Shown: in pieces, positions 11,276 to 34,336 of the stretch
How the letters are laid out: each line of letters begins with the position of its first letter
How positions within the stretch are numbered: the first letter of the stretch is position 1
Source of the DNA: a virus
Taxonomy: Duplodnaviria > Heunggongvirae > Uroviricota > Caudoviricetes
Virus record (IMG/VR): IMGVR_UViG_2869965101_000006
Length of the DNA: 36,398 nt
Strand: one strand, 5' to 3'
The notes under the pieces: generated by a model
The model's input: the letters and a program-made list of their open reading frames with translations, nothing else
Databases searched by the model: none
What the model was told of the DNA's origin: nothing
Program-made: the position numbers and the translations under genes

Positions 11276-11429
11276 TGCTCCCCCTGAGTAATTACAGGAA
11301 GATTACCCGCGCGCGAAACTGTTCTCCTTAACCCTCTGTTCTGGCCGTTTTCTTACAACAAAAGCCCTTTGTATCAGCCTGTTACGCTTTGCCATCATGA
11401 CTGAAGAACCAGTCAGAGGGGCAAAAACT

Positions 11430-11885: not shown

Positions 11886-11921
11886 ACGTTTAACAGTATC
11901 CAGGGTGAAGGAGAAGGACGA

Positions 11922-17228: not shown

Positions 17229-17565
17229 CCAACAACGCCAACTGCGCGACAGGGAACGAATAATACCCAAATCGCAAGCACGGCTTTCGTTATGGCTGCG
17301 ATTGCCGCCCTTGTAGATTCGTCACCTGACGCACTGAATACGCTGAACGAGTTAGCGGCGGCGCTGGGAAACGACCCGAATTTTGCGACCACCATGACTA
17401 ACGCGCTTGCGGGTAAGCAACCGAAAGATGCCACCCTGACGGCGCTGGCCGGGCTTGCTACTGCGGCAGACAGGTTTCCGTATTTTACGGGGAATGATGT
17501 CGCCAGCCTGGCAACCCTGACAAAAGTCGGGCGGGATATTCTTGCGAAATCGACCGTTGCTGCCG

Positions 17566-17591
17566 TTATCGAATACCTCGGTTTACGAGAA
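17566..17591. other. gix/hix-type inversion crossover site, left copy inside the fibre gene
   Basis: TTATCGAATACCTCGGTTTACGAGAA matches the reverse complement of 21021..21046 at 21 of 26 positions, with an identical ACCTCGGTTTAC core. Confidence 0.6.
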
Positions 17592-18009
17592 CTCGGCACA
17601 AGCGGGGAGAAAATACCGTTACTCAGTACAGCGAATACCTGGACCAATCGACAAACATTCAGCGGTGGCCTTTCTGGGGAACTGTCCGGCAATGCCGCTA
17701 CTGCAACAAAGCTGAAAACAGCACGAAAAATTGCTGGAGTTGGTTTTGATGGTTCTAGCGATATTTCAATTAGTGCCAAAAATGTCAATGCATTTGCACT
17801 CCGACAAACAGGTAATACTGTTAATGGTGATACATCCATTGGATGGAATTGGGATAGTAGTGCATATAACGCCCTGATTGGTGGTGCATCTGCATTAATT
17901 CTTCACTTTAATATAAATGCTGGTAGCTGTCCTGCCGTACAATTCCGTGTGAATTATAAAAATGGTGGCATTTCCTACAGGTCGGCTCGTGATGGTTATG
18001 GGGTTGAAT

Positions 18010-18777
18010 GGTGATGCTGCCAACTTACTGATTTAGTGTATGATGGTGTTTTTGAGGTGCTCCAGTGGCTTCTGTTTCTATCAGCTGTCCCTCCTGTTCA
18101 GCTACTGACGGGGTGGTGCGTAACGGCAAAAGCACTGCCGGACATCAGCGCTATCTCTGCTCTCACTGCCGTAAAACATGGCAACTGCAGTTCACTTACA
18201 CCGCTTCTCAACCCGGTACGCACCAGAAAATTATTGATATGGCCATGAATGGCGTTGGATGCCGGGCAACTGCACGCATTATGGGCGTTAGCCTCAACAC
18301 GATTTTACGTCACTTAAAAAACTCAGGCCGCAGTCGGTAACCTCGCGCATACAGCCGGGCAGTGACGTCATCGTCTGCGCGGAAATGGACGAACAGTGGG
18401 GATACGTCGGGGCTAAATCGCGCCAGCGCTGGCTGTTTTACGCGTATGACAGGCTCCGGAAGACGGTTGTTGCGCACGTATTCGGTGAACGCACTATGGC
18501 GACGCTGGGGCGTCTTATGAGCTTGCTGTCACCCTTTGACGTGGTGATATGGATGACGGATGGCTGGCCACTGTATGAATCCCGCCTGAAGGGAAAGCTG
18601 CACGTAATCAGCAAGCGATATACGCAGCGAATTGAGCGGCATAACCTGAATCTGAGGCAGCACCTGGCACGGCTGGGACGGAAGTCGCTGTCGTTCTCAA
18701 AATCGGTGGAGCTGCATGACAAAGTCATCGGGCATTATCTGAACATAAAACACTATCAATAAGTTGGAGTCATTACC
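18010..18777 (+). mobile_element. IS1, 768 bp, with 9-bp target duplication GGGTTGAAT
   Basis: Ends GGTGATGCTGCCAACTTACTGAT… and …ATCAATAAGTTGGAGTCATTACC; insA 18065..18340 and insB frame 18385..18762; duplication at 18001..18009 and 18778..18786. Confidence 0.9.
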
Positions 18778-19066
18778 GGGTTGAATTAGGTTGGTCAGAT
18801 TTCTATACCACGACACGAAAACCTTCAGCGGGAGATGTTGGTGCATATACGCGGGCAGAATGTAACTCAAGGTTTATTACAGGTATTCGCCTTGGCGGTC
18901 TGTCATCTGTTCAGACATGGAATGGTCCCGGCTGGTCTGACAGGTCAGGTTATGTCGTTACGGGTTCAGTTAACGGAAACCGTGATGAATTAATTGATAC
19001 AACACAGGCAAGGCCAATTCAGTATTGCATTAATGGGACGTGGTATAACGCGGGGAGTATTTAACG

Positions 19067-19600
19067 ATGATGCACTTAAAAAACATTACTGCTGGCAACC
19101 CTAAAACAAAAGAGCAATACCAGCTAACAAAGCAATTTAACATCAAATGGCTTTATTCAGATGATGGAAAAAACTGGTATGAGGAGCAAAAGAATTTCCA
19201 GCCAGACACTTTGAAAATGGTCTATGACCATAACGGCGTTATTATTTGTATTGAAAAGGATGTTTCAGCAATTAATCCGGAAGGCGCAAGCGTCGTTGAA
19301 TTACCTGATATTACAGCAAATCGCCGGGCTGATATTTCGGGGAAATGGTTGTTCAAAGATGGCGTAGTGATAAAGCGAACTTATACCGAGGAAGAGCAGA
19401 GGCAACAAGCGGAAAATGAAAAGCAAAGCCTGTTGCAACTTGTCAGGGATAAAACCCAGCTATGGGACTCACAGCTACGGCTGGGCATCATTTCCGACGA
19501 GAATAAACAAAAATTAACCGAGTGGATGCTCTATGCGCAGAAAGTCGAATCTACAGACACCTCCAGCCTGCCAGTAACGTTTCCCGAACAACCAGAATGA
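19067..19600 (+). CDS. tail fibre assembly protein (P2 G-like)
   Basis: 177-aa ORF directly after the fibre gene; paralogue of the inverted copy at 19629..20156. Confidence 0.75.
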   Translation: MMHLKNITAGNPKTKEQYQLTKQFNIKWLYSDDGKNWYEEQKNFQPDTLKMVYDHNGVIICIEKDVSAINPEGASVVELPDITANRRADISGKWLFKDGVVIKRTYTEEEQRQQAENEKQSLLQLVRDKTQLWDSQLRLGIISDENKQKLTEWMLYAQKVESTDTSSLPVTFPEQPE

Positions 19601-19628
19601 GAGAAGGCCCGATATTGGGCCTTAATTT

Positions 19629-20156
19629 TTACTCAGGCTTTTGTGGCCATTCGGGATTTGCTGTATCCACACGGCTGACCAGAACGCTGTAGCGTTCCCA
19701 TGACTCCAGTCGTGTGCGTTCCTCATCCATCGCCATATTCAGCCTGACAGCGCGTTCCAGTGGCTGAATAACGCTTTCAGCTTCAGAAAGCAACGCGACC
19801 TTTTGTGATTCGGCCTGTTGTTGCTGTTCGTCTGCTGTATAAATCCGCTTAACCACAGTTCCGTCCTTAAACATCCACTTCCCTGAATCATCGGCGCGAC
19901 GATTGGCTGTTATATCTGGAATCTCAACGACACTAAAGCCTTCGGGATTAAGCGTTGAGGCATCTTTGGTTATGGCAACAATAATATTATTTTCGTCGTA
20001 TACAATCTTTATGGTGTCGTCCTGAAAGTTATTTACTTCCTCATACCAGTTTTTACCGTCTTCGGACCATAACCAGATAACATCAAAATTCTTTGTTAGC
20101 TGATATTGTTCTTTTGTTTTTGGATTTCCGGACTTAATATTTTTTAAATGCTGCAT
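19629..20156 (-). CDS. alternative tail fibre assembly protein of the invertible segment
   Basis: 175-aa ORF; N-terminal ~45 residues nearly identical to the 19067..19600 product, then divergent. Confidence 0.75.
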
Positions 20157-20159
20157 AAT

Positions 20160-21020
20160 TTACACCTGTGCGACGTTATACCATGTGCCATTGATGTATT
20201 TTTGTATTGGTCTGAAGATGGCTTCATCATCGCCATCTACTTCACCAATGATTCTTAATCCGGTAATTGCGTGTCCGGCTTTTTCATAACGACCACCACG
20301 CGCCATCAATTGAACAACACGCGTACCCAGGCGAACATCTTTTACATAGCGTGAATCAAAATTCCCCCAGTTGCTGGGCTGTATCTGACCGTTAACAGAA
20401 AATATTACCGAGTTATCTGTATTTCGCTGGCTATAGAAATGCCATCCTGCCTCATCGCCTAACTCTGCAACTACTGGACGGGTTGAAGCACCCCATAAAT
20501 TAAACGTTGCATTCTTTGTGAAGTTGTTGGAGCTGGATAGCGTGAATTTTTTACCATCCCCGGCCTGAATATTTTTAAAAGCAATAGCCACTCCATTCTG
20601 AAAGCGGAATACACGCTGACTATTAGCATAAACATCCAGAATACCGTCTCCATTCTGTTTAAATCCGGTGTCATTATCACCAAGAACAATAGAGCTACCA
20701 CCTAACGCATTCGTCGAACCAACTCCAAGACTGCCATTAATGACAGCATTAACAAGAATATTTAGTGCATCCCATTTCAGCGTCATCAGGTCTTTTGTTG
20801 TGGTGCTCTGGCGGCTTCTCCATTTGAAATATTCATTGCCGTTGTCGCCTGTTTCAAACCACATGTATGAATCAGTGTCACCATCGGCATCATTTTTAAA
20901 TCCAATCTTCGCCCAGTCAGTATTTCGAATCCAGGCAAGGATTGAGTCATTTTCAAAAGTAAGCCCACCGGACAAGGTATCGCCATTTTTTTGCACGGCG
21001 TTACCAGCCCTGTTTACCGT
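20160..21020 (-). CDS. alternative tail fibre C-terminal segment, promoterless and start-less; expressed only after inversion
   Basis: Frame stays open on the minus strand from 20160 up to the gix site at 21021..21046; no ATG of its own. Confidence 0.65.
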   Translation of the reverse strand, partial: TVNRAGNAVQKNGDTLSGGLTFENDSILAWIRNTDWAKIGFKNDADGDTDSYMWFETGDNGNEYFKWRSRQSTTTKDLMTLKWDALNILVNAVINGSLGVGSTNALGGSSIVLGDNDTGFKQNGDGILDVYANSQRVFRFQNGVAIAFKNIQAGDGKKFTLSSSNNFTKNATFNLWGASTRPVVAELGDEAGWHFYSQRNTDNSVIFSVNGQIQPSNWGNFDSRYVKDVRLGTRVVQLMARGGRYEKAGHAITGLRIIGEVDGDDEAIFRPIQKYINGTWYNVAQV

Positions 21021-21046
21021 TTCCTGTAAACCGAGGTTTTAAATAA
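21021..21046. other. gix/hix-type inversion crossover site, right copy
   Basis: TTCCTGTAAACCGAGGTTTTAAATAA, closely resembling the Mu gix sequence as recalled; inverted partner at 17566..17591. Confidence 0.6.
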
Positions 21047-21100
21047 TGGCCGTTTCTGGCCTGCATGGCATGATTTGCGCTTTTGGACGGGAGATTCAGT

Positions 21101-21700
21101 GTGCTGATTGGCTATGTAAGGGTATCAACAAATGACCAGAATACAGACCTGCAACGAAACGCTCTTGTTTGTGCAGGATGTGAACAAATATTTGAAGATA
21201 AATTAAGCGGGACAAAGACAGACCGACCGGGATTAAAACGCGCTTTAAAGCGCCTTCAAAAAGGTGACACGCTGGTTGTCTGGAAACTGGATCGCCTCGG
21301 GCGAAGCATGAAACATCTGATTTCTCTCGTCGGGGAACTACGGGAGCGAGGGATTAATTTTCGCAGTCTGACCGACAGCATAGACACATCTTCTCCAATG
21401 GGGCGTTTTTTCTTCCACGTGATGGGTGCCCTGGCTGAAATGGAACGTGAATTAATTGTTGAACGTACACTGGCCGGGCTGGCGGCAGCGCGCGCAAGGG
21501 GGCGCACAGGCGGACGTCGACCGAAGCTGACAAAAGAACAGCATGAGCAAATAGCAAGGCTAATCAAAAACGGGCACGACAGAAAACAACTGGCAATAAT
21601 TTACGGCATTGGCACATCGACGATTTATCGTTATCACCCTGTAGGCGATATACAGACTGAAGAAACAACCGGGCAGACTCAGGAAAATGAAAACCGCTAA
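21101..21700 (+). CDS. Gin/Pin/Cin/Hin-family serine DNA invertase
   Basis: GTG start giving MLIGYVRVSTNDQ… with catalytic-serine motif and C-terminal HTH; near-identical to Mu Gin as recalled. Confidence 0.85.
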   Translation: MLIGYVRVSTNDQNTDLQRNALVCAGCEQIFEDKLSGTKTDRPGLKRALKRLQKGDTLVVWKLDRLGRSMKHLISLVGELRERGINFRSLTDSIDTSSPMGRFFFHVMGALAEMERELIVERTLAGLAAARARGRTGGRRPKLTKEQHEQIARLIKNGHDRKQLAIIYGIGTSTIYRYHPVGDIQTEETTGQTQENENR

Positions 21701-21718
21701 TCTGACCATTAGCGGTTT
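21689..21718. terminator. bidirectional stem-loop terminator between the convergent invertase and U genes
   Basis: AAAACCGCTAAT-ctgacc-ATTAGCGGTTTT with a T-run on the plus strand and an A-run on the other side. Confidence 0.6.
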
Positions 21719-21728
21719 TTGTGTTAAA

Positions 21729-22223
21729 TCAGAACAGCCCTTTAACTGAACTGGCCGCGCTGTTAAGAGATGATGTCACCTTATCTTTGAAGCCGGACAG
21801 CATATCACTGAACGATGAGGATTGCAGGCGCTCCCGCAAATCCTCATCACAGCGTTCAAGAGTCAGTGAAAATTCTATCTTTTTCGCCTTACCGTAGCGA
21901 TCAAACTCGGAGCGGGTCGTATTCGTTTCAGTCAGGACATACATGCCGTAAATCTGCCCGACGCCATCAATCAAAGGCCAGGGTCGTCCTGTATACGCCT
22001 GCGTGGTCAGCAGCGACAGCGACACTTCGCCACCTGTAATTTCAGGATAAAGCACACCAGAAAGAACGATGCGATCATCACCTGCACCGATATACTGCCA
22101 GCTTGCTGAACGGTTAACGCGTTCATTTTTCACATGCCGCCAGCTTTTGTTTTGCTGTAACTGCTGATGCGGCAGCGTGCGCAGCTCAAAAACAAACATG
22201 CCGTAGATCATCATCATGGCCAT
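21729..22223 (-). CDS. tail protein (P2 U-like)
   Basis: 164-aa ORF with recalled similarity to P2 gpU (…GMFVFELRTLPHQ…). Confidence 0.75.
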   Translation of the reverse strand: MAMMMIYGMFVFELRTLPHQQLQQNKSWRHVKNERVNRSASWQYIGAGDDRIVLSGVLYPEITGGEVSLSLLTTQAYTGRPWPLIDGVGQIYGMYVLTETNTTRSEFDRYGKAKKIEFSLTLERCDEDLRERLQSSSFSDMLSGFKDKVTSSLNSAASSVKGLF

Positions 22224-22229
22224 GACTCC

Positions 22230-25046
22230 TCAATCTTTATCGTAAAAACAGCCACGCCCGGCACGGGCGCGCCGTTCCATTTCTGCCCTGACCATTTCAC
22301 CGACCAGTTTCGCCAGTTCGCGGGGATTCTGCGTAACAACGTTATGCAGATGAACATGAATTTCACCACCAAATCCGGAGGCAACAGGCTCCCGGTTACG
22401 GGAAGTTACAGGAACTGATGCCACTGGAGATCGTATAGCCTCCGCCACCGGGCGGGAGCTGGCCGCAACAACAGGGACCAGCGCCGGAGGCAGCGGAGCC
22501 GGAACCACGGGTGTGATATTAATTGCGGGGGCAGGCTTACTGACCTGCGCAATCTTCCGCTCCTGCCACTCCCCACGAACAGCAAGTGCTCGGGGCAGGT
22601 TTTTAAAGACAATATCGCCGGGGCCAATGCGTTTTTTCGTCTCCTCAACCAGCTTACCTGTGTTATCAGCAATTTTGCTGAGTCTGCGCAGCGTACCGGT
22701 ATTGCTGTCTGTGAGCGGTTTATTGTCTTTGGGGTTATCACCTCCGGTGCCATTGCCATTTTCCACAGGCTTCGGCGGATTGATTTTCGCCAGGTCCCCC
22801 TGAAGCAAGGCAACCTTGTCCTGAAGAATGGCCGCACGCTGTGCGTCTTCGATTTTCTTGCGCGCCCTTTCCGCTTCATCCGGAAGCACACCAAGCTTTT
22901 CAAGTATCCACGCCAGCGTATCCAGCAACATTTTTGCAGGTGTCAGAACAAGTTGTAACGCACCGCCAAGAACGTTACCGAATATCTCGCCAGCACTGGT
23001 ACATTTATCCAGAGTTTCCTTGCTGGACTCCATCGGTGACAGCAGCGATTTAAACCAGTTAAACACCTGGCTGATCCCACTCCCGATTGCGTCAAAAACA
23101 GGACCAAACCGTTCAAATGTTTCGCGCAACGGGGTCAGCCTTTCCATAATCCCGCTGAACACCCCGGCAAAAAATGCCCTGATGGGATCCCAGTATTTCC
23201 AGATAAGAACGGCAGCTCCGGCAAGCGCAGCCACGATAAGACCAACCGGACTGAACAACGCCCCGATAGCGCCTCCCAGTAAAGAAACGGAACCCGTCAC
23301 CATTCCCCATAGTGCTGGCAGAACCCTGACAGCATTCATTGATCCGGTCAGGAGGGAAAAACCAAGACGCAGTTTTGCCAGCGGGCCAGCAAGCACACCA
23401 ATAGCCAGCGACAACGAGCCAACCGTTGCAGTCATTGCCAGCAATGCACCGCCTGCAATCAGTAGCTGGCGCGTCAGTGCGGGATGGGCCTGCGCCAGCG
23501 CCGTCACCTTTGATACCACACGCGTGAGCCACTGCGTGACAGAACGCAGCGGACCGTCAATCAGATCTGCAATGCGGATGCGCAACCCTTCCCATGCACT
23601 GCTGAGTGATTTCAGATCGCCGTCAAGGTTGTTGGCCATAACCTTTGCCGTGCGTTCAGCCTCACCGCGCGCGCCTTCAAGTTCTTTTCTCAGTTTGGGT
23701 AAGGAGCCGTCACCTGCCGCATCAACGAGGGCCATAAATGATGTGAAAGCCTCTTCTCCGGCAATGTCCTTAAAGAACGATACCCGGTCAACTTCCCCGT
23801 ATTTGCGGGTAGCTTTATAAAGGTCAGCCAGCACATCCTCCATCGGGCGCATTTTGCCCCCGGCATCCGAGACAGACACGCCAAGCTCTTTCAGCGCCTC
23901 TGCTGCCGCCTTTGGCGGTGATGCCAGACGAGCCAGGCTGGCACGCATTGCCGTACCAGCATCACTCCCCCTGATACCCATATTCGCCAGCACGCCCGCC
24001 ATCGCTGCGGCCTGCTCCAGAGATATTCCCAGCTTACCCGCCACCGGACCTGCATATTTCATGGTTTCACCCAGTGCGCGAAGGTCAGTGTTGGTACGGG
24101 TAAACGCTGCGGTGAGTGTGTCGCCGACCCGGTCCATCTGGTCAGCAGAAAGACCGAACTGCGTCAGAATATTTGAGCCAATATCCGCCGTCTCACCGAG
24201 GTCCATACCGCCAGCCGTTGCCATGCTCAGTACGCCAGGGAGCGCAGCCTGAATGGCCTGTGGTGTAAAGCCAGCCATTGCAAGAAATGCCTGTCCACTG
24301 GCGGCATCGCCTGCGGTGAACTGCGTTTCAGAGCAAAGTTTTAACGCCTGCTCACGCAGCGCCTTAAACTGCGGGCTGTTCTGGTCGATTCGCGTCAGTG
24401 CCTGAACGCGGAACATCTCTTTGCCGAACCCGATCGCAGGCTGCAAAAAACGCCCGGCAGCATAGCCGCCCGCCGCTGCCGCACCAATTGCCAGCGCACC
24501 ACCTGTTTTCAGTTTTCCCGCTGTTTCCTGCGCGCGCGAATACCGCTCACGCGCCCGTGTTACACGCGCAAGCGCCTGCCGTTCGCGTTCAAGCTGGTTG
24601 TTGTACTGTTCGGTGCGTCTGATGGCCTGCTGGATGGTGTTATCGCTGCCTGTCAGGGAAATGCCGTGGCGTTTCAGCTCTCCGCCAAGCTCCCGCATTT
24701 TCTGAATTTCCCGTGTGCGCGATTCATTCAGGCGTTCAAGCCGGGTGCTTAACTGCTGCATCAGCTTTTGTTGTTTTTCGCTGAGCACTGTACCCGTGCG
24801 TTGTAACTGATTAAGGGCGTTAAGCTGGCGTCGTGCTTTCACGATGCCCGCATCCGCTTTACTGACAGCGTCACGGGCGCGCTCAAATGATCGCGCCTGA
24901 CGCTCGAGATTTTTGATCGCCCCCTGCGTTCGCTGGATGGAGTCACCAAACTGCCCCATCAGGCGGCGGGCGTTTTCGGCAGGCCGGGTCAGCCTGTCAA
25001 CGGCGCTGAAAGCGACCCGGATATCAAGAGTCTTCATTGTCTGCAT
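22230..25046 (-). CDS. tail tape measure protein (P2 T-like)
   Basis: About 940 aa, Ala/Gly-rich with coiled-coil and hydrophobic stretches; intact ORF; start approximate. Confidence 0.85.
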   Translation of the reverse strand: MQTMKTLDIRVAFSAVDRLTRPAENARRLMGQFGDSIQRTQGAIKNLERQARSFERARDAVSKADAGIVKARRQLNALNQLQRTGTVLSEKQQKLMQQLSTRLERLNESRTREIQKMRELGGELKRHGISLTGSDNTIQQAIRRTEQYNNQLERERQALARVTRARERYSRAQETAGKLKTGGALAIGAAAAGGYAAGRFLQPAIGFGKEMFRVQALTRIDQNSPQFKALREQALKLCSETQFTAGDAASGQAFLAMAGFTPQAIQAALPGVLSMATAGGMDLGETADIGSNILTQFGLSADQMDRVGDTLTAAFTRTNTDLRALGETMKYAGPVAGKLGISLEQAAAMAGVLANMGIRGSDAGTAMRASLARLASPPKAAAEALKELGVSVSDAGGKMRPMEDVLADLYKATRKYGEVDRVSFFKDIAGEEAFTSFMALVDAAGDGSLPKLRKELEGARGEAERTAKVMANNLDGDLKSLSSAWEGLRIRIADLIDGPLRSVTQWLTRVVSKVTALAQAHPALTRQLLIAGGALLAMTATVGSLSLAIGVLAGPLAKLRLGFSLLTGSMNAVRVLPALWGMVTGSVSLLGGAIGALFSPVGLIVAALAGAAVLIWKYWDPIRAFFAGVFSGIMERLTPLRETFERFGPVFDAIGSGISQVFNWFKSLLSPMESSKETLDKCTSAGEIFGNVLGGALQLVLTPAKMLLDTLAWILEKLGVLPDEAERARKKIEDAQRAAILQDKVALLQGDLAKINPPKPVENGNGTGGDNPKDNKPLTDSNTGTLRRLSKIADNTGKLVEETKKRIGPGDIVFKNLPRALAVRGEWQERKIAQVSKPAPAINITPVVPAPLPPALVPVVAASSRPVAEAIRSPVASVPVTSRNREPVASGFGGEIHVHLHNVVTQNPRELAKLVGEMVRAEMERRARAGRGCFYDKD

Positions 25047-25187
25047 TCCCGCTACGAAGTGCCGCTCGCTCACGCCAGCTAACCACTTCGCAGGGCGTCA
25101 TCATGAAGATTTCGGCGGGCGACCAGTTAAAAATGGCGGCAATATCCGCCACCAGATCTTCGATGTGCTCAAAGCACACCAGGGTGA

Positions 25188-25562
25188 TTACGCTGCCGTC
25201 TCCTGCACGCTCTTCGCGCCAGAGTCTGGCTCGCTCATAAAATTTACAGCCACAGCGCACAACTGAATAAAATCGCGTGACGACATTTTTTTAATCATCA
25301 CTTCATCCAGTCGTGGCGAGGTCACGCGAGGCAACAGCGTGAACATGGTATCCGCTTTCAGATTCAGCACATCAGACAGCGACAGACCACGCAGGGATCC
25401 AGCCTGCTCAATAGCCCCGGTGATCTCCACATACGTGATTTTTTCGCCACCACGCTCAATTGGTCGGGTCAGTTTTACGCCACGTTCGACAGCCATATCC
25501 TCAACTGCCGTCACATTATCCGCCACGGTGTTATTCCGGGTTTCAGTATCGATGTCTTTCAT
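25188..25562 (-). CDS. tail assembly chaperone E, with a -1 frame extension (E') to 25024
   Basis: Overlapping ORFs 25188..25562 and 25024..25260 in 0 and -1 frames directly upstream of T; slippery candidates at 25239..25245 and 25286..25292. Confidence 0.65.
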   Translation of the reverse strand: MKDIDTETRNNTVADNVTAVEDMAVERGVKLTRPIERGGEKITYVEITGAIEQAGSLRGLSLSDVLNLKADTMFTLLPRVTSPRLDEVMIKKMSSRDFIQLCAVAVNFMSEPDSGAKSVQETAA

Positions 25563-25620
25563 CTGTTGTCTCCTTTTCAGTCAGAGGCGACGCACTGCGC
25601 CGCCAGCATATTACTTATCA

Positions 25621-26905
25621 GCCAAGCCCAAGCGCGGAACGGATGCGATCGGGCACAATGTCCTTGCCGTCCTTCGGTGATGCTGCCAACTTACTGATTT
25701 AGTGTATGATGGTGTTTTTGAGGTGCTCCAGTGGCTTCTGTTTCTATCAGCTGTCCCTCCTGTTCAGCTACTGACGGGGTGGTGCGTAACGGCAAAAGCA
25801 CTGCCGGACATCAGCGCTATCTCTGCTCTCACTGCCGTAAAACATGGCAACTGCAGTTCACTTACACCGCTTCTCAACCCGGTACGCACCAGAAAATTAT
25901 TGATATGGCCATGAATGGCGTTGGATGCCGGGCAACTGCACGCATTATGGGCGTTAGCCTCAACACGATTTTACGTCACTTAAAAAACTCAGGCCGCAGT
26001 CGGTAACCTCGCGCATACAGCCGGGCAGTGACGTCATCGTCTGCGCGGAAATGGACGAACAGTGGGGATACGTCGGGGCTAAATCGCGCCAGCGCTGGCT
26101 GTTTTACGCGTATGACAGGCTCCGGAAGACGGTTGTTGCGCACGTATTCGGTGAACGCACTATGGCGACGCTGGGGCGTCTTATGAGCTTGCTGTCACCC
26201 TTTGACGTGGTGATATGGATGACGGATGGCTGGCCACTGTATGAATCCCGCCTGAAGGGAAAGCTGCACGTAATCAGCAAGCGATATACGCAGCGAATTG
26301 AGCGGCATAACCTGAATCTGAGGCAGCACCTGGCACGGCTGGGACGGAAGTCGCTGTCGTTCTCAAAATCGGTGGAGCTGCATGACAAAGTCATCGGGCA
26401 TTATCTGAACATAAAACACTATCAATAAGTTGGAGTCATTACCCCGTCCTTCCGGTAAATGAAGTTCAGCAGGTCAATCTCCCACAACGGGCGATCGTTA
26501 ACACTCAGCTTGTAGTAGGTGTTTTAATGGCGTAAGTGTGTGATGTGGCTTCGCCCTGTTTGGCTTCCCCCATATCAATTTCCGTCACACGTCCGCGCAT
26601 TTCGACTTCATACAGGTCGCTTTCTGCATCGGTGTAGTATTCACCCGCAAAACGCAGCAGCGTGCCGTCAATCGTGCCGCCATACTTAAGGAACAGCTCA
26701 CGAACTGCGCCCCCATGACAAAGCTCGCATCAAGCGCGGAGTCGTCCAGACCGAGATCAATACTTACCGCACCCATCATGCCACCACCCCGGTAGCTGTC
26801 GGTTTTGCGCGTCAGCTTAGGCAGAGTGACGGACGTCACATTACCCACTTCGTTTTCACCATCCACAAACAGCGTAAAAAAGCGAAGATGTTTTGGCACA
26901 GCCAT
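25621..26905 (-). pseudogene. tail tube (P2 FII-like) destroyed by IS1 and frameshifts
   Basis: N-terminus (…SVTLPKLTRK…DLGLDD…) matches FII; homology then changes frame at least twice (around 26500 and 26700) and is split by IS1. Confidence 0.75.
25676..26443 (+). mobile_element. IS1, second copy, 768 bp, with 9-bp target duplication CCGTCCTTC
   Basis: Identical to the copy at 18010..18777, same orientation; duplication at 25667..25675 and 26444..26452. Confidence 0.9.
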
Positions 26906-28089
26906 CAGGCACCTCCCAGCACCGCAAATGCGGGTTCAAAGTATTCATCAGTAAACGTCTGGTAAAGCTCCATGTCTTCCAGTGGCGGAACGGGCGTATA
27001 TTTGTAGCGAATACGCACACGTCCCTGACGTAAATCCGTGGTGCTGTTATCCACCACGTCATACCAGCACTCCGCGCCAATCAGTTTCCCGGCAGTCACC
27101 AGTGAATCCAGTTTTGCCCTGATGGCACTGATAACATCCTTCACATTCGCAGGCGTCAGTGGACTGTCGATGGTTTCAAACTGCGCTTCCGCAATTGAAT
27201 CAGCCAGCACCTGTGCGGTTCGGGTATACACCTCAAAGATGTAGGCGTTCGTTTCCGGTGTGCGGTTACCCCAGAAGCGGACCCCGTTGCGACGAATAAT
27301 GGTCGTGATTTCTTTGTTGTTGAGGCTGTTGGCATCGCTGTCTTCGGCCTGCAACGACCAGAACACATGCCTCGACATCCCCAGCACATTTTTAACCGGA
27401 ACGTTGGACAGCGATTTGTGCCATCCCTGTTCATGGTCAATGTACGCACGAAGGCCGCACGCATAGGCAGGCGCGGGGAACGTTTCGTTTTTGCCATTTT
27501 TCGGGTTGTAGGCGATGAAGTCCGGCCATAAGAGCATCACCTCACGTTCGTTGAATTTCTGGCGGTAGGTAATTGCCTCGGCCATCGTGTTACAGCCATG
27601 ACATGAGGCATACACAAACGCGCGCAGTTTATCTGCAATCACGCACAGGGATTTTGTTACCGCCTCCGTGTCCAGCTCCGGCGCGGCCAGAATACGCGGA
27701 CGGTATCCGATGCTTTCATCCTGCTCTGCAACAAGCAGCGCATACATCCCCGTATAGCTGCCGTCATCCTCAGAACCACCGATAACCAGTTGATCCTGCG
27801 TCTTTCCGTCTTCTTCTTTGTGTTCAGCCACGCGAACGACGATCACCTTTGTGCTCACCTGGTCTGCGATGGCCTTAAGCGCACGATAAAGCGTCCCCGT
27901 TGTCCCGCATTTTCCCAGCACGTCATTGACGCGGGTCAGCAGTGTGGGCTTGTTCAGCGGGAACAGCTTCGCGTCCGCATCATCCGCCGTTGCCACGATA
28001 CCGATAACGCTGGAATCAACATCGTTAATCGCTGTTACCAGGTCGGTATTCTCCGTAACACGGGCACCATGAAAACGAGTTTCACTCAT
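26905..28089 (-). CDS. tail sheath protein (P2 FI-like)
   Basis: 394-aa intact ORF with sheath-like sequence. Confidence 0.85.
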   Translation of the reverse strand: MSETRFHGARVTENTDLVTAINDVDSSVIGIVATADDADAKLFPLNKPTLLTRVNDVLGKCGTTGTLYRALKAIADQVSTKVIVVRVAEHKEEDGKTQDQLVIGGSEDDGSYTGMYALLVAEQDESIGYRPRILAAPELDTEAVTKSLCVIADKLRAFVYASCHGCNTMAEAITYRQKFNEREVMLLWPDFIAYNPKNGKNETFPAPAYACGLRAYIDHEQGWHKSLSNVPVKNVLGMSRHVFWSLQAEDSDANSLNNKEITTIIRRNGVRFWGNRTPETNAYIFEVYTRTAQVLADSIAEAQFETIDSPLTPANVKDVISAIRAKLDSLVTAGKLIGAECWYDVVDNSTTDLRQGRVRIRYKYTPVPPLEDMELYQTFTDEYFEPAFAVLGGA

Positions 28090-28246
28090 AGCTTCAGCCC
28101 CTTGTATCCGTTAAATGATTCAGCAACAATCATCACCCACCACGCGCGTAATCTCACCCCTGCGCCGTTCTCCCGCCACGGCGACAACAAAAAGCAGTAA
28201 CCCCCTCCGCACGCACATGCGACCATGCCGCACAGGGAGGGAGTAG

Positions 28247-29356
28247 ATGACCGACACCACCATGCAATTGCTCAGTCAGGGCACGGCCCCCGTGAAAATG
28301 CCGGATTTTGATATTCTCTCGGAGGGTAAAACGCTGTCAGGCGTGGCGGAGCGCCTGATGAGCCTGTAACTGACCGACAACCGGGGATTTGAGGCGGACC
28401 AGCTCACCATCACGCTGGATGATGCGGATGGTCAGTTGCAGCTACCGCCACGGGGCGCGCGTCTGACGGTTCTCATTGGCTGGAAAGGGGAACCGCTGAC
28501 AGAAAAAGGCACTTACATTGTTGATGAAATCGCTCACGAAGGACCGCCGGACAGGCTGACTGTTTCAGCCAGAAGCGCAGATTTTCGGGATGAATTTAAC
28601 GTTAAACGTGAGGTGTCCTGGCATGATGTGACCGTTGAGCGTGTGGTATCCGCCATCGCTCATCGATACGGTCTGAAACCGCAAATCAGCGAAATGCTGA
28701 TGGATATCGAAATCGACCACGCCGACCAGACCGAAGAAAGCGACATGTCCTTTCTTACGCGCATGGCGGAAATGCTGGGAGCAATCGCCACGGTAAAAAG
28801 CGGCAATCTGTTATTCATCATGCCAGGTGGTGGCGTGAACGCACAGGGGCAGCCGTTGCCCTCGTTCGCCATTACACGCAGCAGCGGCGATCGCCATCAG
28901 TTCCGCATTGCTGACCGCGAGGCGTATACGGGGGTACGCGCCTACTGGCTTGATCTTAATTACGGGAAAAAGAAAAAAGTCAGCGTGAAACGCCGCAAAC
29001 CGCCAAAACCCAAAAAGGAGAAAAGCAGCAGTCGGGAAGGCGACTATATGGAAGGTGCGGAAGGCAACGTGTTTGTGTTACGCAAGACTTATCAGAACGA
29101 GCAGGCAGCAAGACGCGCAGCGGCGGCAAAGTGGCAGCAGCTACAACGCGGAGCCGCATCATTCTCCATCACGCTGGCGCGTGGTCGTGCAGAACTCTAT
29201 CCCGAAATGCATGGCACAGTGACAGGCTTTAAAAGCGAGATTGATTATCAGGACTGGATTATTGCAAAAGCCGAGCACACCATTGATAACAGCGGCTTTA
29301 CCACGCAGCTTGAACTTGAAGCAAAAATCCCGGAATGGATAGCAGAAACAGAATAA
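28247..29356 (+). pseudogene. tail protein D (P2 D-like) with in-frame TAA
   Basis: ATG at 28247 after a GGGAGGGAG RBS; in-frame TAA at 28367..28369 inside the conserved …LTDNRGFEADQL… motif; the rest (28436..29356) is open. Confidence 0.75.
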
Positions 29357-29508
29357 ATCTCTTAAAAATATTATTTTTGAGATGTGCTTCTACACTGACA
29401 GTAAGAACAAAAGATAATGTATCAGCCCACTAGATGTCAGAGGTTGGGGCATCAACCAGATGCTAACAATAATACGGATGTTTTTCCCACATGACAGAGG
29501 AAGTCAAG

Positions 29509-29514
29509 TATAAT
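29509..29514 (+). promoter_or_regulatory. candidate -10 element (TATAAT) for the cargo ORF
   Basis: Perfect TATAAT about 90 nt upstream of the 29605 start in an AT-rich intergenic region; no convincing -35. Confidence 0.3.
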
Positions 29515-29604
29515 CTTCACAGTCCATCCCGTCCAAGGGAATATGACTCAATAGTAAAAGTTCCAGTTTAGTTAGTAGACCCACACTTTATAGAAGAGTA
29601 ATTC

Positions 29605-32600
29605 ATGATTGGACAATTTTTAAGTGCAACAGAGATTTTAGCAAAGAACTATGTTCGTAATAAAATGGTTAAAAATCCATTTTATTCGAATTTAAAATGG
29701 AATTTTATTGAAAAAAACATCATAAGATTAACATCCTCACCGGTTAAATCAGTACTTTGCATATCAGCTTTTTCATTTGTACTACTTTATGTTGGATATT
29801 TAAACGAATTATTTATAAAAAATAATCTTTTACATTATTTCCCGTTTAGGCATTCATTAACCGAATGGCAAACAACCATTTTAAGTGGCCAATTGACAAT
29901 TATTGGTATTGTATACCCCCTTGTTATAGGTTTAGTAAGTATCTTATTCCAAAAAAAGGCAGATAGAAAAATAGCCCAAACTGCTTATCAGCGTTACTCA
30001 GGATTCATGCTTGCTGGACTCAGCGGGCTTTTCTTATCAGGATTTATACTTCTCAGTGTACTAATTAAAACTGTCTTTGGAAGTTATCTTTATGGTATAG
30101 CTTGTCTAATCAGCATATTATGGCTTTTGATAAACATAGTTCTTTCTATTTGGTTCTTTATCGTGAGTCTTGAAATTCTTGATGATGTAAAACGGCAAAT
30201 AATTATAAAGCGATACATTGCCTTCGAAATAGTAATGCCCCATATTTGTAACAAAATCTCAGCCAAGCTTAGGTTATACCCTATCTATCAAAAACATAAC
30301 TATTCAAATTTAGAAATCAAGCAAGCCGATTACAAAGGAGAATACATATCTGTGGCTAGCAGTTATTCTAAGGAAGATGAGTTAAGTTTATATCACCGTC
30401 CTTTTCAACTTACTCTTAATCTTATTAATTACCAACTAAAAAAGAAGAATCATTTTGCGTCATTTGTCATTGGTGATAATCGTACAAAAGAAACAGAATC
30501 CACGGGTAAGATACTTTTTAGCGTTAAAAATATCAAACCAGACAGCTTATTAATAAAAATACTTAAGCAATGTTTTTATAGGGCTCCGATTAAAGGAGGA
30601 GATTTTTCCGTAAGTCTTACAATGCAGGCTATAACAGCAGATACGTATATGTATCTGCGGGATTCTGATCTCATTAGTTTTGACAATGCTATCTCTGCAT
30701 TAATTAATAACTTTAATAATCTCTGCGATTTGTATTTTTTTCAAGATGATAATACCAACAATAACTTCTTACTGATCACTACAGAATTATTTGAACGGAG
30801 TTTTCAATATGAGTTTTCAGATGAAGTTTATAAAATATCAAATAATTCCATGGATAAAATTAATCTTTCTGAAAGATTTTTTGAATTATGTCTTTGGAGC
30901 GGAGTGCGTATTATCAATAATAGAAAACATCTTATCAGCAATGAACTTTGTATCTATATGGGAATTACTCGTTCACAATGGTCAATATTAACAGAATGGT
31001 TCCGAAACAACCAATCACTCTTAAATGCCTCGCTTCGTTCACGTTATAATCGTATATTAAGAACCTATACCACTGTTTGGGAGCAATATCAAGAAAGCAT
31101 AAACTTTCGTTTCTGCAATACAGAGAATTCAGATTTATTTGAATTATTTTGCAAAACGCAACTACAAGAACTTCCATCGATGATTATTGATGCAACACAG
31201 ACTCGCGATCCTTCTACTATTGATACAGCCGTCGATCTTATTAACCGATGGCAGCACTCAATGAATATTGACAGCCATTCGGTAGAAAAATACAGTTACA
31301 AAGGCCAGCTTTTTAACCCGGGTTTTTTCATATCCAAAAAACTAAACTTCAATTCAGACAGAGAGTGGTTCAATATTGCCATCATAAATGCGTTGACTGA
31401 CATGCGTATATGCACATGTCTTTATCTGACATCAAGAATCAATACTTCTGACAAACTAATGACACATTACATTAAACTTATTTTAGAGGGTAAACTTATT
31501 GACCAAACCGGTGGATATGAAACTCCCACTGAAGAAATTGATAATGCAAGCCAACTAATCAAGATATTAATTAGAATCTGCCTGTGGACATGGTCTGAAA
31601 ATATGGAACACAATGGGTGGATGAATAGTTTAGCAAGGCGTTTACGTGACTATGATAAAACAGACATGGTGATGGGCAGAGTTTACAGTAATGTTTTTGA
31701 CTGTGGATTTATTGATATGGAACAATCATGGGTTCAGCTATTATTAATTTTTTCTAACAAGAACGATAGCGTATCAAAAGAAATAAAAGAAGCAATAGAA
31801 AACAACTATATAACATATCGTGAGAAGCAACGACTCATTGGAGTATTATCAAAAATTTGTAACTCCATCGAATACACTAAAATCAAGCTGACTTTAACAT
31901 TGGACGATCTCCAAACAAAAAAAGAAAACTTAAGAAAGTTGCTTCAAGAGCATATTAACATGCTAAAGAAAGATCTTGATATGAGACTTCAGGATGCTGC
32001 CATAGATGTACATCGACTAGATAGCACTGCACGTAAAACATCAGAACATCTTCGTAAACGCATCAAGAAAACGCTCCCTCTTTCACTTTTTAAATCTATT
32101 GATTTTAAGCAGGCTAGCGATTGTTTCACAAAACATAAGATATCTATTAAGATAGATAAAGAACCGTATGCCGAAGGAATAGAATCCATCCCTTATATCA
32201 ATGAAGGTGATATTCAAGCAGACTTAATTCTCAAGGACATCCAGAGAATAATACTTTCAAATTTATTTAGCACTGGCTGTTCGCAACATACCGTAATAGA
32301 AGATTTCAATATGTTGATTGATCACATAAAATCATCTGCTGACTTGGCTGGCAAACTGGTTCTTGTGATGAGTAAAGAGATCTTTCAGCAATATAATCGT
32401 ATGCTTTTCGATAATCCCAACCTCAGAGAACTAATGAGAAAAAATGATGATGGCTCTATGAACATAACTACTGAATCCGGTACCCGTAAGGTTTACTTCT
32501 TACCATTTGTTAATCAACCATTTTCTCTTGTGGTAAAGGATAACTACTTCACTAAATTAATTATTAGAGAATATGATAATAATAAGTTAGTAAATGTCAC

Positions 32601-32724
32601 TTCAGAGAATATCAAAAGTGACTCAGATAAATTCAAGCTAACTCTTAACTATGAGTTGAATGTAGTATTTGAAGGAAACGCTGATTTAAAAATAGCTCAC
32701 TCGCAAAGAGTGACATCAGAATAA
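29605..32724 (+). CDS. large hypothetical membrane-anchored protein (1039 aa), AT-rich cargo gene
   Basis: Uninterrupted ORF; four hydrophobic helices in the first ~190 aa then ~850 aa of Asn/Lys/Ile-rich soluble sequence; no Walker A, HxH or other obvious catalytic motif by eye. Confidence 0.75.
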   Translation: MIGQFLSATEILAKNYVRNKMVKNPFYSNLKWNFIEKNIIRLTSSPVKSVLCISAFSFVLLYVGYLNELFIKNNLLHYFPFRHSLTEWQTTILSGQLTIIGIVYPLVIGLVSILFQKKADRKIAQTAYQRYSGFMLAGLSGLFLSGFILLSVLIKTVFGSYLYGIACLISILWLLINIVLSIWFFIVSLEILDDVKRQIIIKRYIAFEIVMPHICNKISAKLRLYPIYQKHNYSNLEIKQADYKGEYISVASSYSKEDELSLYHRPFQLTLNLINYQLKKKNHFASFVIGDNRTKETESTGKILFSVKNIKPDSLLIKILKQCFYRAPIKGGDFSVSLTMQAITADTYMYLRDSDLISFDNAISALINNFNNLCDLYFFQDDNTNNNFLLITTELFERSFQYEFSDEVYKISNNSMDKINLSERFFELCLWSGVRIINNRKHLISNELCIYMGITRSQWSILTEWFRNNQSLLNASLRSRYNRILRTYTTVWEQYQESINFRFCNTENSDLFELFCKTQLQELPSMIIDATQTRDPSTIDTAVDLINRWQHSMNIDSHSVEKYSYKGQLFNPGFFISKKLNFNSDREWFNIAIINALTDMRICTCLYLTSRINTSDKLMTHYIKLILEGKLIDQTGGYETPTEEIDNASQLIKILIRICLWTWSENMEHNGWMNSLARRLRDYDKTDMVMGRVYSNVFDCGFIDMEQSWVQLLLIFSNKNDSVSKEIKEAIENNYITYREKQRLIGVLSKICNSIEYTKIKLTLTLDDLQTKKENLRKLLQEHINMLKKDLDMRLQDAAIDVHRLDSTARKTSEHLRKRIKKTLPLSLFKSIDFKQASDCFTKHKISIKIDKEPYAEGIESIPYINEGDIQADLILKDIQRIILSNLFSTGCSQHTVIEDFNMLIDHIKSSADLAGKLVLVMSKEIFQQYNRMLFDNPNLRELMRKNDDGSMNITTESGTRKVYFLPFVNQPFSLVVKDNYFTKLIIREYDNNKLVNVTSENIKSDSDKFKLTLNYELNVVFEGNADLKIAHSQRVTSE

Positions 32725-32732
32725 TATCTTTG

Positions 32733-32763
32733 ACGGCGCTCCTTAGAGTGCCGTTCGTTTATT
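32733..32763 (+). terminator. rho-independent terminator after the cargo ORF
   Basis: Stem ACGGCGCTC / GAGTGCCGT (one G-U pair), 4-nt loop, then TCGTTTATT. Confidence 0.5.
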
Positions 32764-32859
32764 AACTAATGCTAAAAATCATTATATAGAGAAAGTCATG
32801 TTTAAATCTTAGAGAATACAACCTAGAATAGTGCAAGCACTACAATAAGAGAGGTCGCT

Positions 32860-33096
32860 ATGTTCCGTTGTCCGCTTTGTGGCGCATCTGCCCGTATCCG
32901 CACCAGTCGTCCGGAAAATGATTCAAACACCGTGAGACAAAAGTATTATCAGTGTAACAATCTAGAATGCGGCGTATGTTTCTCAACACTGGAAGCCTTC
33001 CACAAATTCACTTCAAAGCACGCCTCCCCCATTCACTCATCAGAGGGCATCCCGTTGGATTTGCCCCTATATTTCCAGACATCTGTTATCACTTAA
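32860..33096 (+). pseudogene. ogr: late-gene activator ogr, 3' end replaced by the IS2 insertion
   Basis: MFRCPLCGASARIRTSR…YYQCNNLECGVCFS zinc-finger N-terminus like P2 Ogr; from codon 66 the frame is IS2 sequence; original 3' end at 34388..34452. Confidence 0.8.
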
Positions 33097-33972
33097 CCCA
33101 TTACAAGCCCGCTGCCGCAGATATTCCCGTGGCGAGCGATAACCCAGCGCACTATGCGGATGCCATTCGTTATAATGCTCGAACGCCTCTGCAAGGTTCT
33201 TTGCTGCCGTTAACCCGTCTGGTTTGGGCATGATACTGATGTAGTCACGCTTTATCGTTTTCACGAAGCTCTCTGCTATTCCGTTACTCTCCGGACTCCG
33301 CACCGCCGTGTTCTTCGGTTCAAGTCCCAACATCCGGGCGAACTGGCGTGTTTCATTAGCCCGGTAGCATGAACCATTATCCGTCAGCCACTCCACTGGA
33401 GACGACGGAAGATCGTTGCCGAAGCGGCGTTCCACCGCTCCCAGCATGACGTCCTGTACTGTTTCACTGTTGAAGCCGCCGGTAGTCACCGCCCAGTGCA
33501 GTGCCTCACGATCACAGCAGTCCAGCGCGAACGTGACACGCAGTCTCTCTCCGTTATCACAGCAGAACTCGAACCCGTCAGAGCACCATCGCTGATTGCT
33601 TTCTTTCACGGCCACTCTGCCTGTATGTGCCCGTTTCGATGGCGGTACAGCAGGTTTTCGCTCAAGCAACAGGGCATTCTGGCGCATGATCCGGTAAACA
33701 CGTTTGGCATTGATCGCAGGCATACCATCAAGTTCTGCCTGTCTGCGAAGCAGCGCCCATACCCGACGATAACCATACGTGGGCAGCTCTCCGATAACAT
33801 GGTGTATACGGAGAAGCACATCCGTATCATCAGTGTGACGACTGCGGCGGCCATCCATCCAGTCATCGGTTCGTCTGAGAATGACGTGCAACTGCGCACG
33901 CGACACCCGGAGACAACGGCTGACTAAGCTTACTCCCCATCCCCGGGCAATAAGGGCGCGTGCGCTATCCAC
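33067..33972 (-). CDS. insD: IS2 InsD (OrfB, DDE transposase)
   Basis: 301-aa ORF; its 3' end is the sequence duplicated in the remnant at 3580..3844. Confidence 0.85.
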
Positions 33973-34336
33973 TTTTTTGCCCGTCCATATTCAACGGCTT
34001 CTTTGAGGAGTTCATTTTCCATCGTTTTCTTGCCGAGCAGGCGCTGGAGTTCTTTAATCTGCTTCATGGCGGCAGCAAGTTCAGAGGCAGGAACAACCTG
34101 TTCTCCGGCGGCCACAGCAGTAAGACTTCCTTCCTGGTATTGCTTACGCCAGAGAAATAACTGGCTGCTACACCATGTTGCCGGGCAACGAGGGAGACCG
34201 TCATCCCCGGTTCAAAGCTCTGCTGAACAATTGCGATCTTTTCCTGTGTGGTACGCCGTCTGCGTTTCTCCGGCCCTAAGACATCAATCATCTGTACTCC
34301 AATGACTAGTCTAAAAACTAGTATTAAGACTATCAC
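33930..34336 (-). pseudogene. insC: IS2 insC (orfA) with internal frameshift
   Basis: orfA is split into two overlapping ORFs (34064..34336 and 33930..34115) in different frames. Confidence 0.6.

Follow-up and report, generated by a model that had tools for sequence, protein, structure and literature searches.

The tail gene block FI-FII-E-E'-T-U in the stretch of viral DNA analyzed here (36,398 nucleotides; hereafter, the window) is reversed relative to the gene order of P2, and this reversed layout is the inherited and normal one of P88-like phages and of the wider Enterobacterales P2-like clade. The window is a decayed P88-like prophage (Peduoviridae, genus Xuanwuvirus), and its arrangement very probably goes back to one ancient inversion of FI-U, in which the late promoter pF would have been carried along and in which neither the adjacent invertase nor IS1 was involved. 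The layout is ordinary among P88-like prophages, and the main value of the analysis is a caution for interpreting P2-like gene order. Not all P2-like phages follow the P2 order, and a reversed FI-U block, which normally marks a prophage lineage that is very common, is not to be called a rearrangement or a misassembly. A secondary and modest point is that a late operon split by inversion may stay regulated, its dyad-symmetric activator site seemingly being reused in both directions.

Gene layout and decay of the window copy

Pfam, PHROG, and tblastn comparison with P2 agreed on a minus-strand gene order FI-FII-E-E'-T-U (Table 1). The coordinates given in the first-pass annotation were confirmed for U, T, E/E', FII, and FI, all of them minus-strand genes flanked by the invertase gene and D, which are both on the plus strand, and the two intervals that it had named, 28 bp between the invertase gene and U (21701–21728) and 157 bp between FI and D (28090–28246), are the real boundaries of the module. 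Its reading of the orientation as opposite to that of P2 was also borne out, as annotated P2 carries V-W-J-I-H-G and FI-FII-E-E'-T-U-D-ogr on one strand. The window shares with the F late operon of P2, which runs pF-FI-FII-E-E'-T-U-D with ogr following, the FI-to-U genes, their internal order, the overlapping E/E' frame, and, at the level of sequence, an Ogr-type dyad upstream of FI with a predicted −10 element 32–33 nt away. Unlike in P2, FI-U is reversed relative to the baseplate and fiber genes and to D-ogr, and D, which does not overlap U, is preceded by an upstream region of its own. In P2, U (22312–22791) and D (22791–23954) both lie on the plus strand, whereas in the window U ends at 21729 (minus) and D starts at 28247 (plus).

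Table 1. Features at and around the reversed block, by position in the window.
Feature	Position	Strand	Basis or remark
Left gix-like crossover site of the tail-fiber invertible segment	17565–17590		Inverted repeat with 21022–21047; outside the 6.5-kb block
IS1, other copy	18010–18777		Own 9-bp duplication GGGTTGAAT
Right gix-like crossover site	21022–21047		TCCTGTAAACCGAGGTTTTAAATAAT; closely precedes the invertase gene
Gin/Pin-type serine DNA invertase	21101/21083–21700	+	Pfam Resolvase 1.5e-50, HTH_7
Hairpin	21690–21719		Perfect 12-bp stem; A-run on one side, T-run on the other
U, gpU tail protein	21729–22223	−	Ends the leftward F operon; Pfam Phage_P2_GpU 5.5e-39
T, gpT tape measure	22230–25037/25073	−	Pfam PhageMin_Tail 3.4e-57
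E' frame (open)	25024–25260	−	PHROG 1756 tail protein 1.3e-41
E, gpE tail assembly chaperone	25188–25562	−	PHROG 103 7.9e-37; weak Pfam Phage_TAC_7
FII, 3' remnant	25618–25675	−	On the far side of IS1
IS1 near the FII 3' end	25676–26443	+	Own 9-bp target duplication CCGTCCTTC
FII tail tube, 5' part	26444–26905	−	Pfam Phage_tube, residues 4–66 only
FI tail sheath	26905–28089	−	First gene of the leftward F operon; Pfam sheath domains
Predicted −10 hexamer GATGAT, leftward pF	28129–28134	−	32 nt from the dyad; conserved island
Predicted Ogr-type activator dyad GTTCT-N12-ACAAC	28167–28188		Mid FI/D interval; sequence conservation
Predicted rightward D(-ogr) late promoter	28207–28226	+	CGCGCG-like element and extended −10 TGcGACCAT; conservation
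D, gpD baseplate hub	28247–29356	+	Pfam Phage_GPD

Most proteins of the region closely match intact homologues. U and gpE are each 100% identical to the intact homologue; FI matches over 394/394 aa (99.7% identity) and gpT over 935/935 aa (99.5%), while gpD (369/369 aa) and the invertase (199/199 aa) are collinear throughout. The E' homologue is named "GpE family phage tail protein" in RefSeq, and E' could be reached from E by a −1 frameshift, for which A AAT TTT at 25239–25245 is the candidate slippery heptamer.

The window copy is a dead prophage that carries IS insertions, frameshifts, a premature stop within D, and a deletion of ∼3.4 kb that took out capsid genes. Besides IS1, FII contains two frameshifts (its tblastn pieces fall in three frames), D is inactivated by an in-frame TAA at codon 41 (28367–28369), and ogr is split by an IS3-family element. 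The FII frameshifts, the D stop, and the ogr split had been overlooked in the first-pass annotation. Further defects include an IS1 in H, frameshifts in the terminase, and a nonsense codon in the portal gene. Between D and ogr lies a 3.5-kb cargo insertion, absent from P88, with a 1039-aa ORF that had no match in Pfam, PADLOC, NCBIfam, or PHROGs.

The hairpin noticed earlier at the invertase/U interval is present. It folds at −17.1 kcal/mol on the plus strand and −15.7 kcal/mol on the minus strand (z about −6), was listed as terminator-like, and is predicted to act as an intrinsic terminator in both directions where the convergent invertase and U genes meet. Terminators were found at the convergent junction in both genera, that of the window and that of its Klebsiella relative. 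In E. coli prophages without the invertase, homology begins at 21723, just beyond the hairpin, and the left junction is a hotspot of variable cargo.

The invertase serves the neighboring 3.5-kb tail-fiber segment (17565–21047) and not the FI-U block. Similar to the Mu G segment with Gin, and to Cin of P1 and Pin of e14, this segment has gix-like inverted sites, alternative fiber C-termini with assembly genes, and an adjoining invertase gene. It also occurs in both orientations among relatives, the stretch 17562–21050 being flipped relative to P88_4B11 and in the same orientation as in E. coli GDSC2BY4G. The 6.5-kb FI-U block differs from the Mu G segment in showing a single orientation in the population and in lacking inverted 26-bp crossover sites at its ends, as judged by similarity to the window's own gix sites.

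The reversed layout in relatives

The first-pass annotation had regarded the block as a local inversion or a possible misassembly. The comparison with related phages and prophages overturned this view, as the same collinear arrangement was recovered and no rearrangement is peculiar to the window. Escherichia phages P88 and P88_4B11 and Citrobacter phage PhiSM (Xuanwuvirus) natively share the gene order, strands, and junctions. Their DNA is 94–99.5% identical to the window and collinear from the invertase through U-FI, D, ogr, and hok, most of the rest of the window is also collinear, and the FI/D interval shows 3 differences in 157 nt. Nearly all segments shared with P88 and P88_4B11 are 94–99.9% identical, and the annotated records of both carry the invertase (+), U-T-E'-E-FII-FI (−), and D-ogr (+). 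A query of the block was covered to 88–89% at 96–98% identity by P88-like phages, the uncovered part being IS1. The window differs from the P88 group in that its copy is defective and has the 3.5-kb cargo between D and ogr. P88 and PhiSM are cultivable phages of the same layout; P88 is mitomycin-inducible and plaque-forming with a burst size of ∼65 (PMC5285337), and PhiSM forms plaques and lysogenizes K-12 (PMC6456863).

The layout extends well beyond these phages. An intact E. coli prophage 99.6–100% identical to the window carries it identically, and a query from the invertase to D found a collinear counterpart, interrupted by IS1 alone, in each of 686 complete E. coli genomes as well as in 13 phage records. 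The FI/D junction of this lineage is present in ∼25% of complete E. coli genomes, and among the 1380 matching it, 1358 have it intact. The Klebsiella Reginaelenavirus Kp4871-3 natively shares the layout at 45–76% amino acid identity, without the invertase. The 43 genome loci whose upstream sequence was long enough, drawn from ∼20 Enterobacterales genera and with D 65–99% identical, all read T−, E−, FII−, FI−, and then D+. The block was thus not seen in both orientations among close relatives. Sakai Sp13 is missing most of its morphogenesis genes and is uninformative. No explicit description of the reversed-block arrangement was found in the literature searched on P88-like and P2-like phages.

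Origin of the reversed orientation

By parsimony, one old, clade-defining inversion appears most likely, because P2 and distant relatives keep U and D adjacent. A tblastn search with a U+D fusion found the two adjacent in 396 of 531 phage records, and the adjacency is kept in phiCTX, RSA1, phiE202, and phages of Mannheimia, Stenotrophomonas, and Wolbachia; the sampled records with U and D split all have a D at least 60% identical to that of the window. As U-D adjacency is retained in remote outgroups (Burkholderia, Ralstonia, Pseudomonas, Mannheimia, and Wolbachia), it is taken to be the ancestral state, which stands against a variant in which the minus-strand layout is ancestral and the P2 order derived. 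This variant belongs to a view without any inversion, otherwise explained by a foreign contractile-tail FI-U cassette having entered in reverse. Phage genomes are mosaic and the left junction is a cargo hotspot, in keeping with such an entry. However, the block proteins FI, FII, E, T, and U (33–47% amino acid identity) resemble P2 as closely as the flanking V, J, and D do (45–54%) and are not foreign on this count; the two sets are equally diverged from P2, although the N-terminal part of H is closer (70%). The pF dyad, its spacing, and the −10 element are also all of the P2 type, and we consider an explanation without inversion improbable.

An event confined to this genome is far less probable still. 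The invertase gene adjoins the left junction, and one 26-bp stretch overlapping the start of D (28226–28251) matches gix at 16 of 26 positions, so that a recent inversion by a Gin/Pin-type enzyme acting on quasi-gix sites in the FI/D interval and beside its own gene might be imagined; inversions at quasi-sites are known for Cin of P1. The similarities are nonetheless in the range of chance: the 16/26 match is 1 of 11 positions scoring at least 16, and the left junction, where a weak, partial resemblance to a gix half-site had been noted, reaches 13/26, a score attained at 662 window positions. A search for short inverted repeats linking the two block junctions, proposed in the first-pass annotation, found none. 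The Klebsiella relative and O157:H7 relatives have the identical layout without an invertase, and the block keeps one orientation across the population. The invertase module is a recent mobile addition, sharing 95% DNA identity with its counterpart in a Mu-like Yersinia phage. Involvement of the invertase in the orientation of the block can hence be practically dismissed. We give equally little credence to misassembly or to a rearrangement that IS1 would have mediated in this strain. Of the two IS1 copies, identical over 768/768 nt, one lies inside the block and the other near it, and assemblers can be misled by identical repeats. Both, however, are simple insertions. No block junction falls at an IS1, each copy retains its own matching 9-bp duplication, with no exchange between them, so that neither has recombined, and the alignments to P88_4B11 overlap by 9 bp at the FII copy. 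The copies are in direct orientation, which would yield a deletion and not an inversion, as the earlier annotation had rightly held, and the IS-free sequence is collinear with, and 99.6–100% identical to, an independent complete genome.

In the single-inversion history that we favor, a segment consisting of the pF promoter and FI-FII-E/E'-T-U would have inverted once in the ancestor of the clade, breaking the U/D overlap of the P2 type and taking its own Ogr-dependent late promoter along. The activator site would then have come to lie mid-way in the 157-bp FI/D interval, where it may serve a divergent pair of late promoters, with pF reading leftward into FI-U and a second one reading rightward into D, ogr, and any cargo gene between them. 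The leftward operon would stop at the bidirectional terminator common to U and the adjoining cargo, here the invertase module. The invertase would flip the adjacent tail-fiber segment only, and the orientation of the block would owe nothing to it or to the two IS1 insertions.

Predicted late promoters in the FI/D interval

It had been proposed that the inversion separates FI-U from its late promoter context. This was contradicted by a pF-type dyad and −10 element at P2 spacing directly upstream of FI, from which the block appears to have kept its late promoter. TGT-N12-ACA, the strict late-promoter consensus, gave 10 matches against 9.7 expected and 0 in the relevant intervals, and was set aside. 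The pattern that replaced it, GTTNT-N12-ANAAC, was taken from a pair of divergent intervals and afterwards tested against other genera. The second of these intervals lies between the terminase and scaffold genes and has identical dyad half-sites (11338–11359). The pattern has 6 matches in the window against 0.56 expected, a figure that is biased because the pattern was defined after viewing the window's own two sites; independent support for the dyad comes from other genera. The Klebsiella relative has only two dyad matches in 22.9 kb, in those same two intervals, and the canonical phage L006 has a dyad upstream of FI. The P2 pF carries GTTGT-N12-CCAAC inside its annotated activator site, which is matched when one mismatch is allowed, although in P2 the pattern is then at chance level (17 matches against 15.2 expected). 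The strict dyad pattern occurs in 17 of 47 genome loci, the left half-site elsewhere being degenerate with G.T.T conserved; in the alignment, which took all 43 of the 47 with FI upstream, the right half-site shows at least 90% conservation and the spacer is variable. A third dyad match at 7313–7334 is also conserved in P88; with a hairpin after it and neither a CGCGCG nor a −10 element, it is probably not a late promoter.

On the leftward side, the GATGAT hexamer forms a conserved island across the 43 aligned intervals, and its distance from the dyad compares with 33 nt for the GAAAAT −10 of P2 pF, whose start site is annotated; transcription is predicted to start near 28120–28122. On the D side, the CGCGCG/−10 element is the most conserved island of the 43 intervals (mean of 1.3–1.4 bits vs. 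0.65–0.73 in the flanks). Its −10 hexamer (28221–28226) is separated from the dyad by 32 nt, the spacing also seen at pF and pP, and the predicted start near 28233–28235 gives D a very short predicted leader of ∼13 nt. A generic sigma-70 scan of the FI/D interval found no promoter-like match on either strand, which is what activator-dependent promoters would be expected to give.

Similar to P2 pP/pO, in which one site (3057–3087) serves starts at 3016 and 3127, 55–56 nt to either side, the window dyad is centered at 28177.5 with −10 elements 32 nt out each way and predicted starts at ∼55–57 nt. Unlike in P2, the genes on either side of the shared site are FI and D, which belong to one operon there, and the function of this layout here is suggested by conservation and spacing. 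Whether the old inversion turned a one-way pF into a bidirectional, Ogr-dependent promoter, with a single dyad driving FI-U to the left and D-(cargo)-ogr to the right, we regard as an evenly balanced question; no description of this idea was found in the literature searched. If true, ogr would be under its own late promoter, and a new cargo slot would have opened between D and ogr, here holding the unclassifiable 1039-aa membrane protein.

Orientation of the FI-U block in the window and in close relatives

The ORF map and family searches bore out the first-pass annotation in its description of genes, strands and junction sizes: the FI-U tail-gene unit lies on the minus strand between an invertase gene and D, both on the plus strand, from which it is separated by 28 bp (invertase/U) and 157 bp (FI/D). 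In the annotated record of P2, V-W-J-I-H-G and FI-FII-E-E'-T-U-D-ogr are all placed on a single strand, with a one-base overlap between U and D. The FI-U unit is hence reversed in comparison with P2.

Coordinates of features in the window (block genes, invertase and D from the ORF map and family searches)
Feature	Coordinates	Strand	Remarks
Dyad, third exact match	7313-7334		GTTATTTCCTGAATAACACAAC
ORF downstream of third dyad	7392-7982
Portal ORFs	8473-9195 and 9232-9525		stop codon
Large terminase pieces	11275-10625 and 10673-9528		frameshift
Dyad, terminase/scaffold interval	11338-11359
Deletion	~11898-11901		~3.4 kb
Tail-fibre invertible segment	17565-21047		gix-like ends, 17565-17590 and 21022-21047
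IS1 copy 1	18010-18777		within H; own matching 9-bp duplication GGGTTGAAT
Serine invertase gene	21083/21101-21700	+
Hairpin	21690-21719
gpU	21729-22223	-
Tape measure T	22230-25037	-
E' frame	25024-25260	-	open
E	25188-25562	-
IS1 copy 2	25676-26443		within FII; own matching 9-bp target duplication
FII	from 26905 downward	-
Sheath FI	26905-28089	-
Dyad, FI/D interval	28167-28188		GTTCT-N12-ACAAC
gpD	start 28247	+
Inserted segment, D-ogr	29353-32818
1039-aa ORF	29605-32724	+
ogr pieces	32860-33055 and 34383-34449
IS3-family element	33056-34382		OrfB, rve domains
IS110-family transposase gene	35202-36398		runs off right end of window

Of 5426 complete E. coli genomes, 686 gave one collinear match, broken only at IS1, to an 8.6-kb query from invertase to D, as did 13 phage records; the FI/D junction alone was intact in nearly every E. 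coli genome with any match to it (1358 of 1380). The annotated genomes of P88 and P88_4B11 (Peduoviridae, Xuanwuvirus) showed the identical layout, i.e., invertase (+), U, T, E', E, FII and FI (-), and D and ogr (+). P88 is mitomycin C-inducible and plaque-forming, with a burst size of ~65 (PMC5285337). PhiSM of Citrobacter rodentium, which shares 97% identity over the block, formed plaques and lysogenised K-12 (PMC6456863). The intact prophage of E. coli GDSC2BY4G was collinear with the window at 99.6-100% identity after three IS elements were taken out, and all its block genes are annotated as intact by RefSeq. The block thus lies as is usual in a very common prophage lineage, whose gene order has already been deposited.

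The first-pass annotation had read the block as a local rearrangement. Since these intact relatives natively share the layout, that reading was rejected, as were an invertase product and an artefact. The two IS1 copies are identical, in direct orientation and with their own duplications, and neither lies at a block junction, which upholds the earlier view that they do not explain the inversion. The true gix-like sites bound the 3.5-kb tail-fibre segment; at the block junctions, gix similarity was not above chance in a gix-similarity comparison, and the half-site likeness formerly noted at 21711-21725 proved to be only GGTTTT from the terminator stem and tail. An inverted-repeat search of both junctions, proposed at the same time, found no repeat joining them.

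PhiSM virions have been described with long, non-contractile, siphovirus-like tails (PMC6456863), a mismatch with the deposited PhiSM genome and its sheath-tube-tape measure block. The images of the two phages may have been swapped.

Wider distribution and origin of the arrangement

The Klebsiella phage Kp4871-3 (Reginaelenavirus), whose proteins show 45-76% identity to those of the window, carries V, J and H (+), U, T, E, FII and FI (-), and D and an ogr-like gene (+), without an invertase. A scan with P88 gpD, using one genome per bacterial species, returned 47 loci, and T, E, FII and FI (-) followed by D (+) were found in all 43 with enough upstream sequence. These belonged to ~20 genera, including Salmonella, Serratia, Edwardsiella, Erwinia, Pantoea, Pectobacterium, Brenneria, Kosakonia, Enterobacter, Klebsiella, Raoultella and Symbiopectobacterium. 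Among 531 phage records (tblastn, U+D fusion query), U lay next to D in the same direction in 396, including P2, 186, phiCTX, RSA1, phiE202 and Mannheimia, Stenotrophomonas and Wolbachia phages; in the sampled records with U and D split, D always shared 60% identity or more with the window's copy (tblastn). The block proteins share 33-47% identity with P2 and the flanking V, J and D 45-54%; the block being as diverged from P2 as its flanks, a foreign cassette is disfavoured. By parsimony, the arrangement would go back to a single old inversion at the base of an Enterobacterales clade rather than to an imported cassette.

Contigs assigned to a Vagococcus sp. (L007) and a Planococcaceae MAG (L049) bear a gpD with 97-99% identity to its E. 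coli phage counterpart, the former additionally bearing the FI-T block. In these assemblies, assigned to Gram-positive taxa, such sequences are probably contamination.

Predicted promoters and terminators at the block junctions

The FI/D interval contains a dyad of the Ogr-type activator pattern (GTTNT-N12-ANAAC), and the same half-sites recur halfway along the interval that separates the divergently oriented terminase and scaffold genes. Across 22.9 kb of Kp4871-3, the pattern has just two matches, which fall in the two corresponding intervals; their half-sites are perfect (GTTGT/ACAAC) and their spacers unrelated. A Klebsiella phage of canonical gene order has the dyad upstream of FI, and the P2 counterpart, GTTGT-N12-CCAAC, lies inside the annotated activator site of pF, the late promoter ahead of FI. 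At 32-33 nt from the dyad stands a hexamer resembling a -10 element: GATGAT towards FI, GACCAT towards D (preceded by TG and a CGCGCG-like element) and TAATCT, following CGCGCGCGGG, towards terminase. This matches the 33 nt to GAAAAT in P2 pF, the start of which is annotated. Alignment of 43 distinct FI/D intervals revealed conserved islands exactly at the dyad and -10 elements (mean information 1.2-1.7 bits), with variable spacer and flanks (0.6-0.7 bits). The geometry mirrors that of P2 pP/pO, divergent promoters with a single common activator site and starts 55-56 nt to each side.

The dyad, the -10 spacing, the conservation and the pP/pO-like geometry suggest that FI-U retains its predicted late promoter, the pF elements being kept within the FI/D interval and not cut off from the genes as had been supposed in the first-pass annotation. 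D(-ogr) seems to have acquired a predicted rightward late promoter on the same activator site, so that one dyad-symmetric site would serve FI-U leftward and D(-ogr) rightward. The late transcripts are predicted to begin ~55-57 nt to each side of the dyad, near 28120-28122 (-) and 28233-28235 (+), with termination at the hairpin beyond U. Such use of the pF activator site in both directions, as read from the sequence, would be an only mildly new element; no description of it was found in the literature searched.

A third exact dyad match is kept in P88 and P88_4B11, upstream of an ORF. A hairpin follows this dyad, which has neither the CGCGCG nor the -10 element seen at the late promoters.

At the convergent invertase/U junction, a hairpin bordered by A- and T-runs has folding energies of -17.1 kcal/mol on one strand and -15.7 kcal/mol on the other, and an equivalent GC-rich hairpin is present in Kp4871-3. 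Both look like bidirectional terminators.

Variable slots and decay of the prophage copy

The left junction varies among E. coli: the invertase adjoins U in 621 genomes, and many other matching genomes are homologous to the window only from 21723 onwards and bear different cargo, such as a serine O-acetyltransferase gene in O157:H7 F3113. This slot is equivalent to the Z/fun cargo position of P2. The invertase module, 95% identical in DNA to that of a Mu-like Yersinia phage, is a later, mobile addition, as the variability of the slot indicates. The tail-fibre segment, which holds alternative fibre C-termini and assembly genes, is inverted relative to P88_4B11 and oriented as in E. coli GDSC2BY4G.

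The D-ogr gap likewise acts as a cargo hotspot in view of its differing contents: the 1039-aa ORF in the window, a YecA-family gene in an O157:H7 relative and nothing in P88_4B11. The ORF has a G+C content of 0.31-0.39 compared with ~0.55 around it, and several predicted N-terminal membrane helices. It found no match in Pfam, PADLOC, NCBIfam or PHROGs; RefSeq gives the identical gene of E. coli GDSC2BY4G the name 'MFS transporter'.

The prophage in the window is dead. Relative to P88 and GDSC2BY4G, a deletion has removed the 3' scaffold, major capsid, small terminase, head completion, X and 5' holin sequences, and the large terminase and portal genes are broken. FII carries two frameshifts besides its IS1, the other IS1 breaks the expressed H gene within the invertible segment, codon 41 of D is TAA (Ser in P88), and ogr is split by the IS3-family element. 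An IS110-family transposase gene lies at the window's right end; this gene, the IS3-family element and the two IS1 copies suggest that the host was Shigella-like or otherwise IS-rich.
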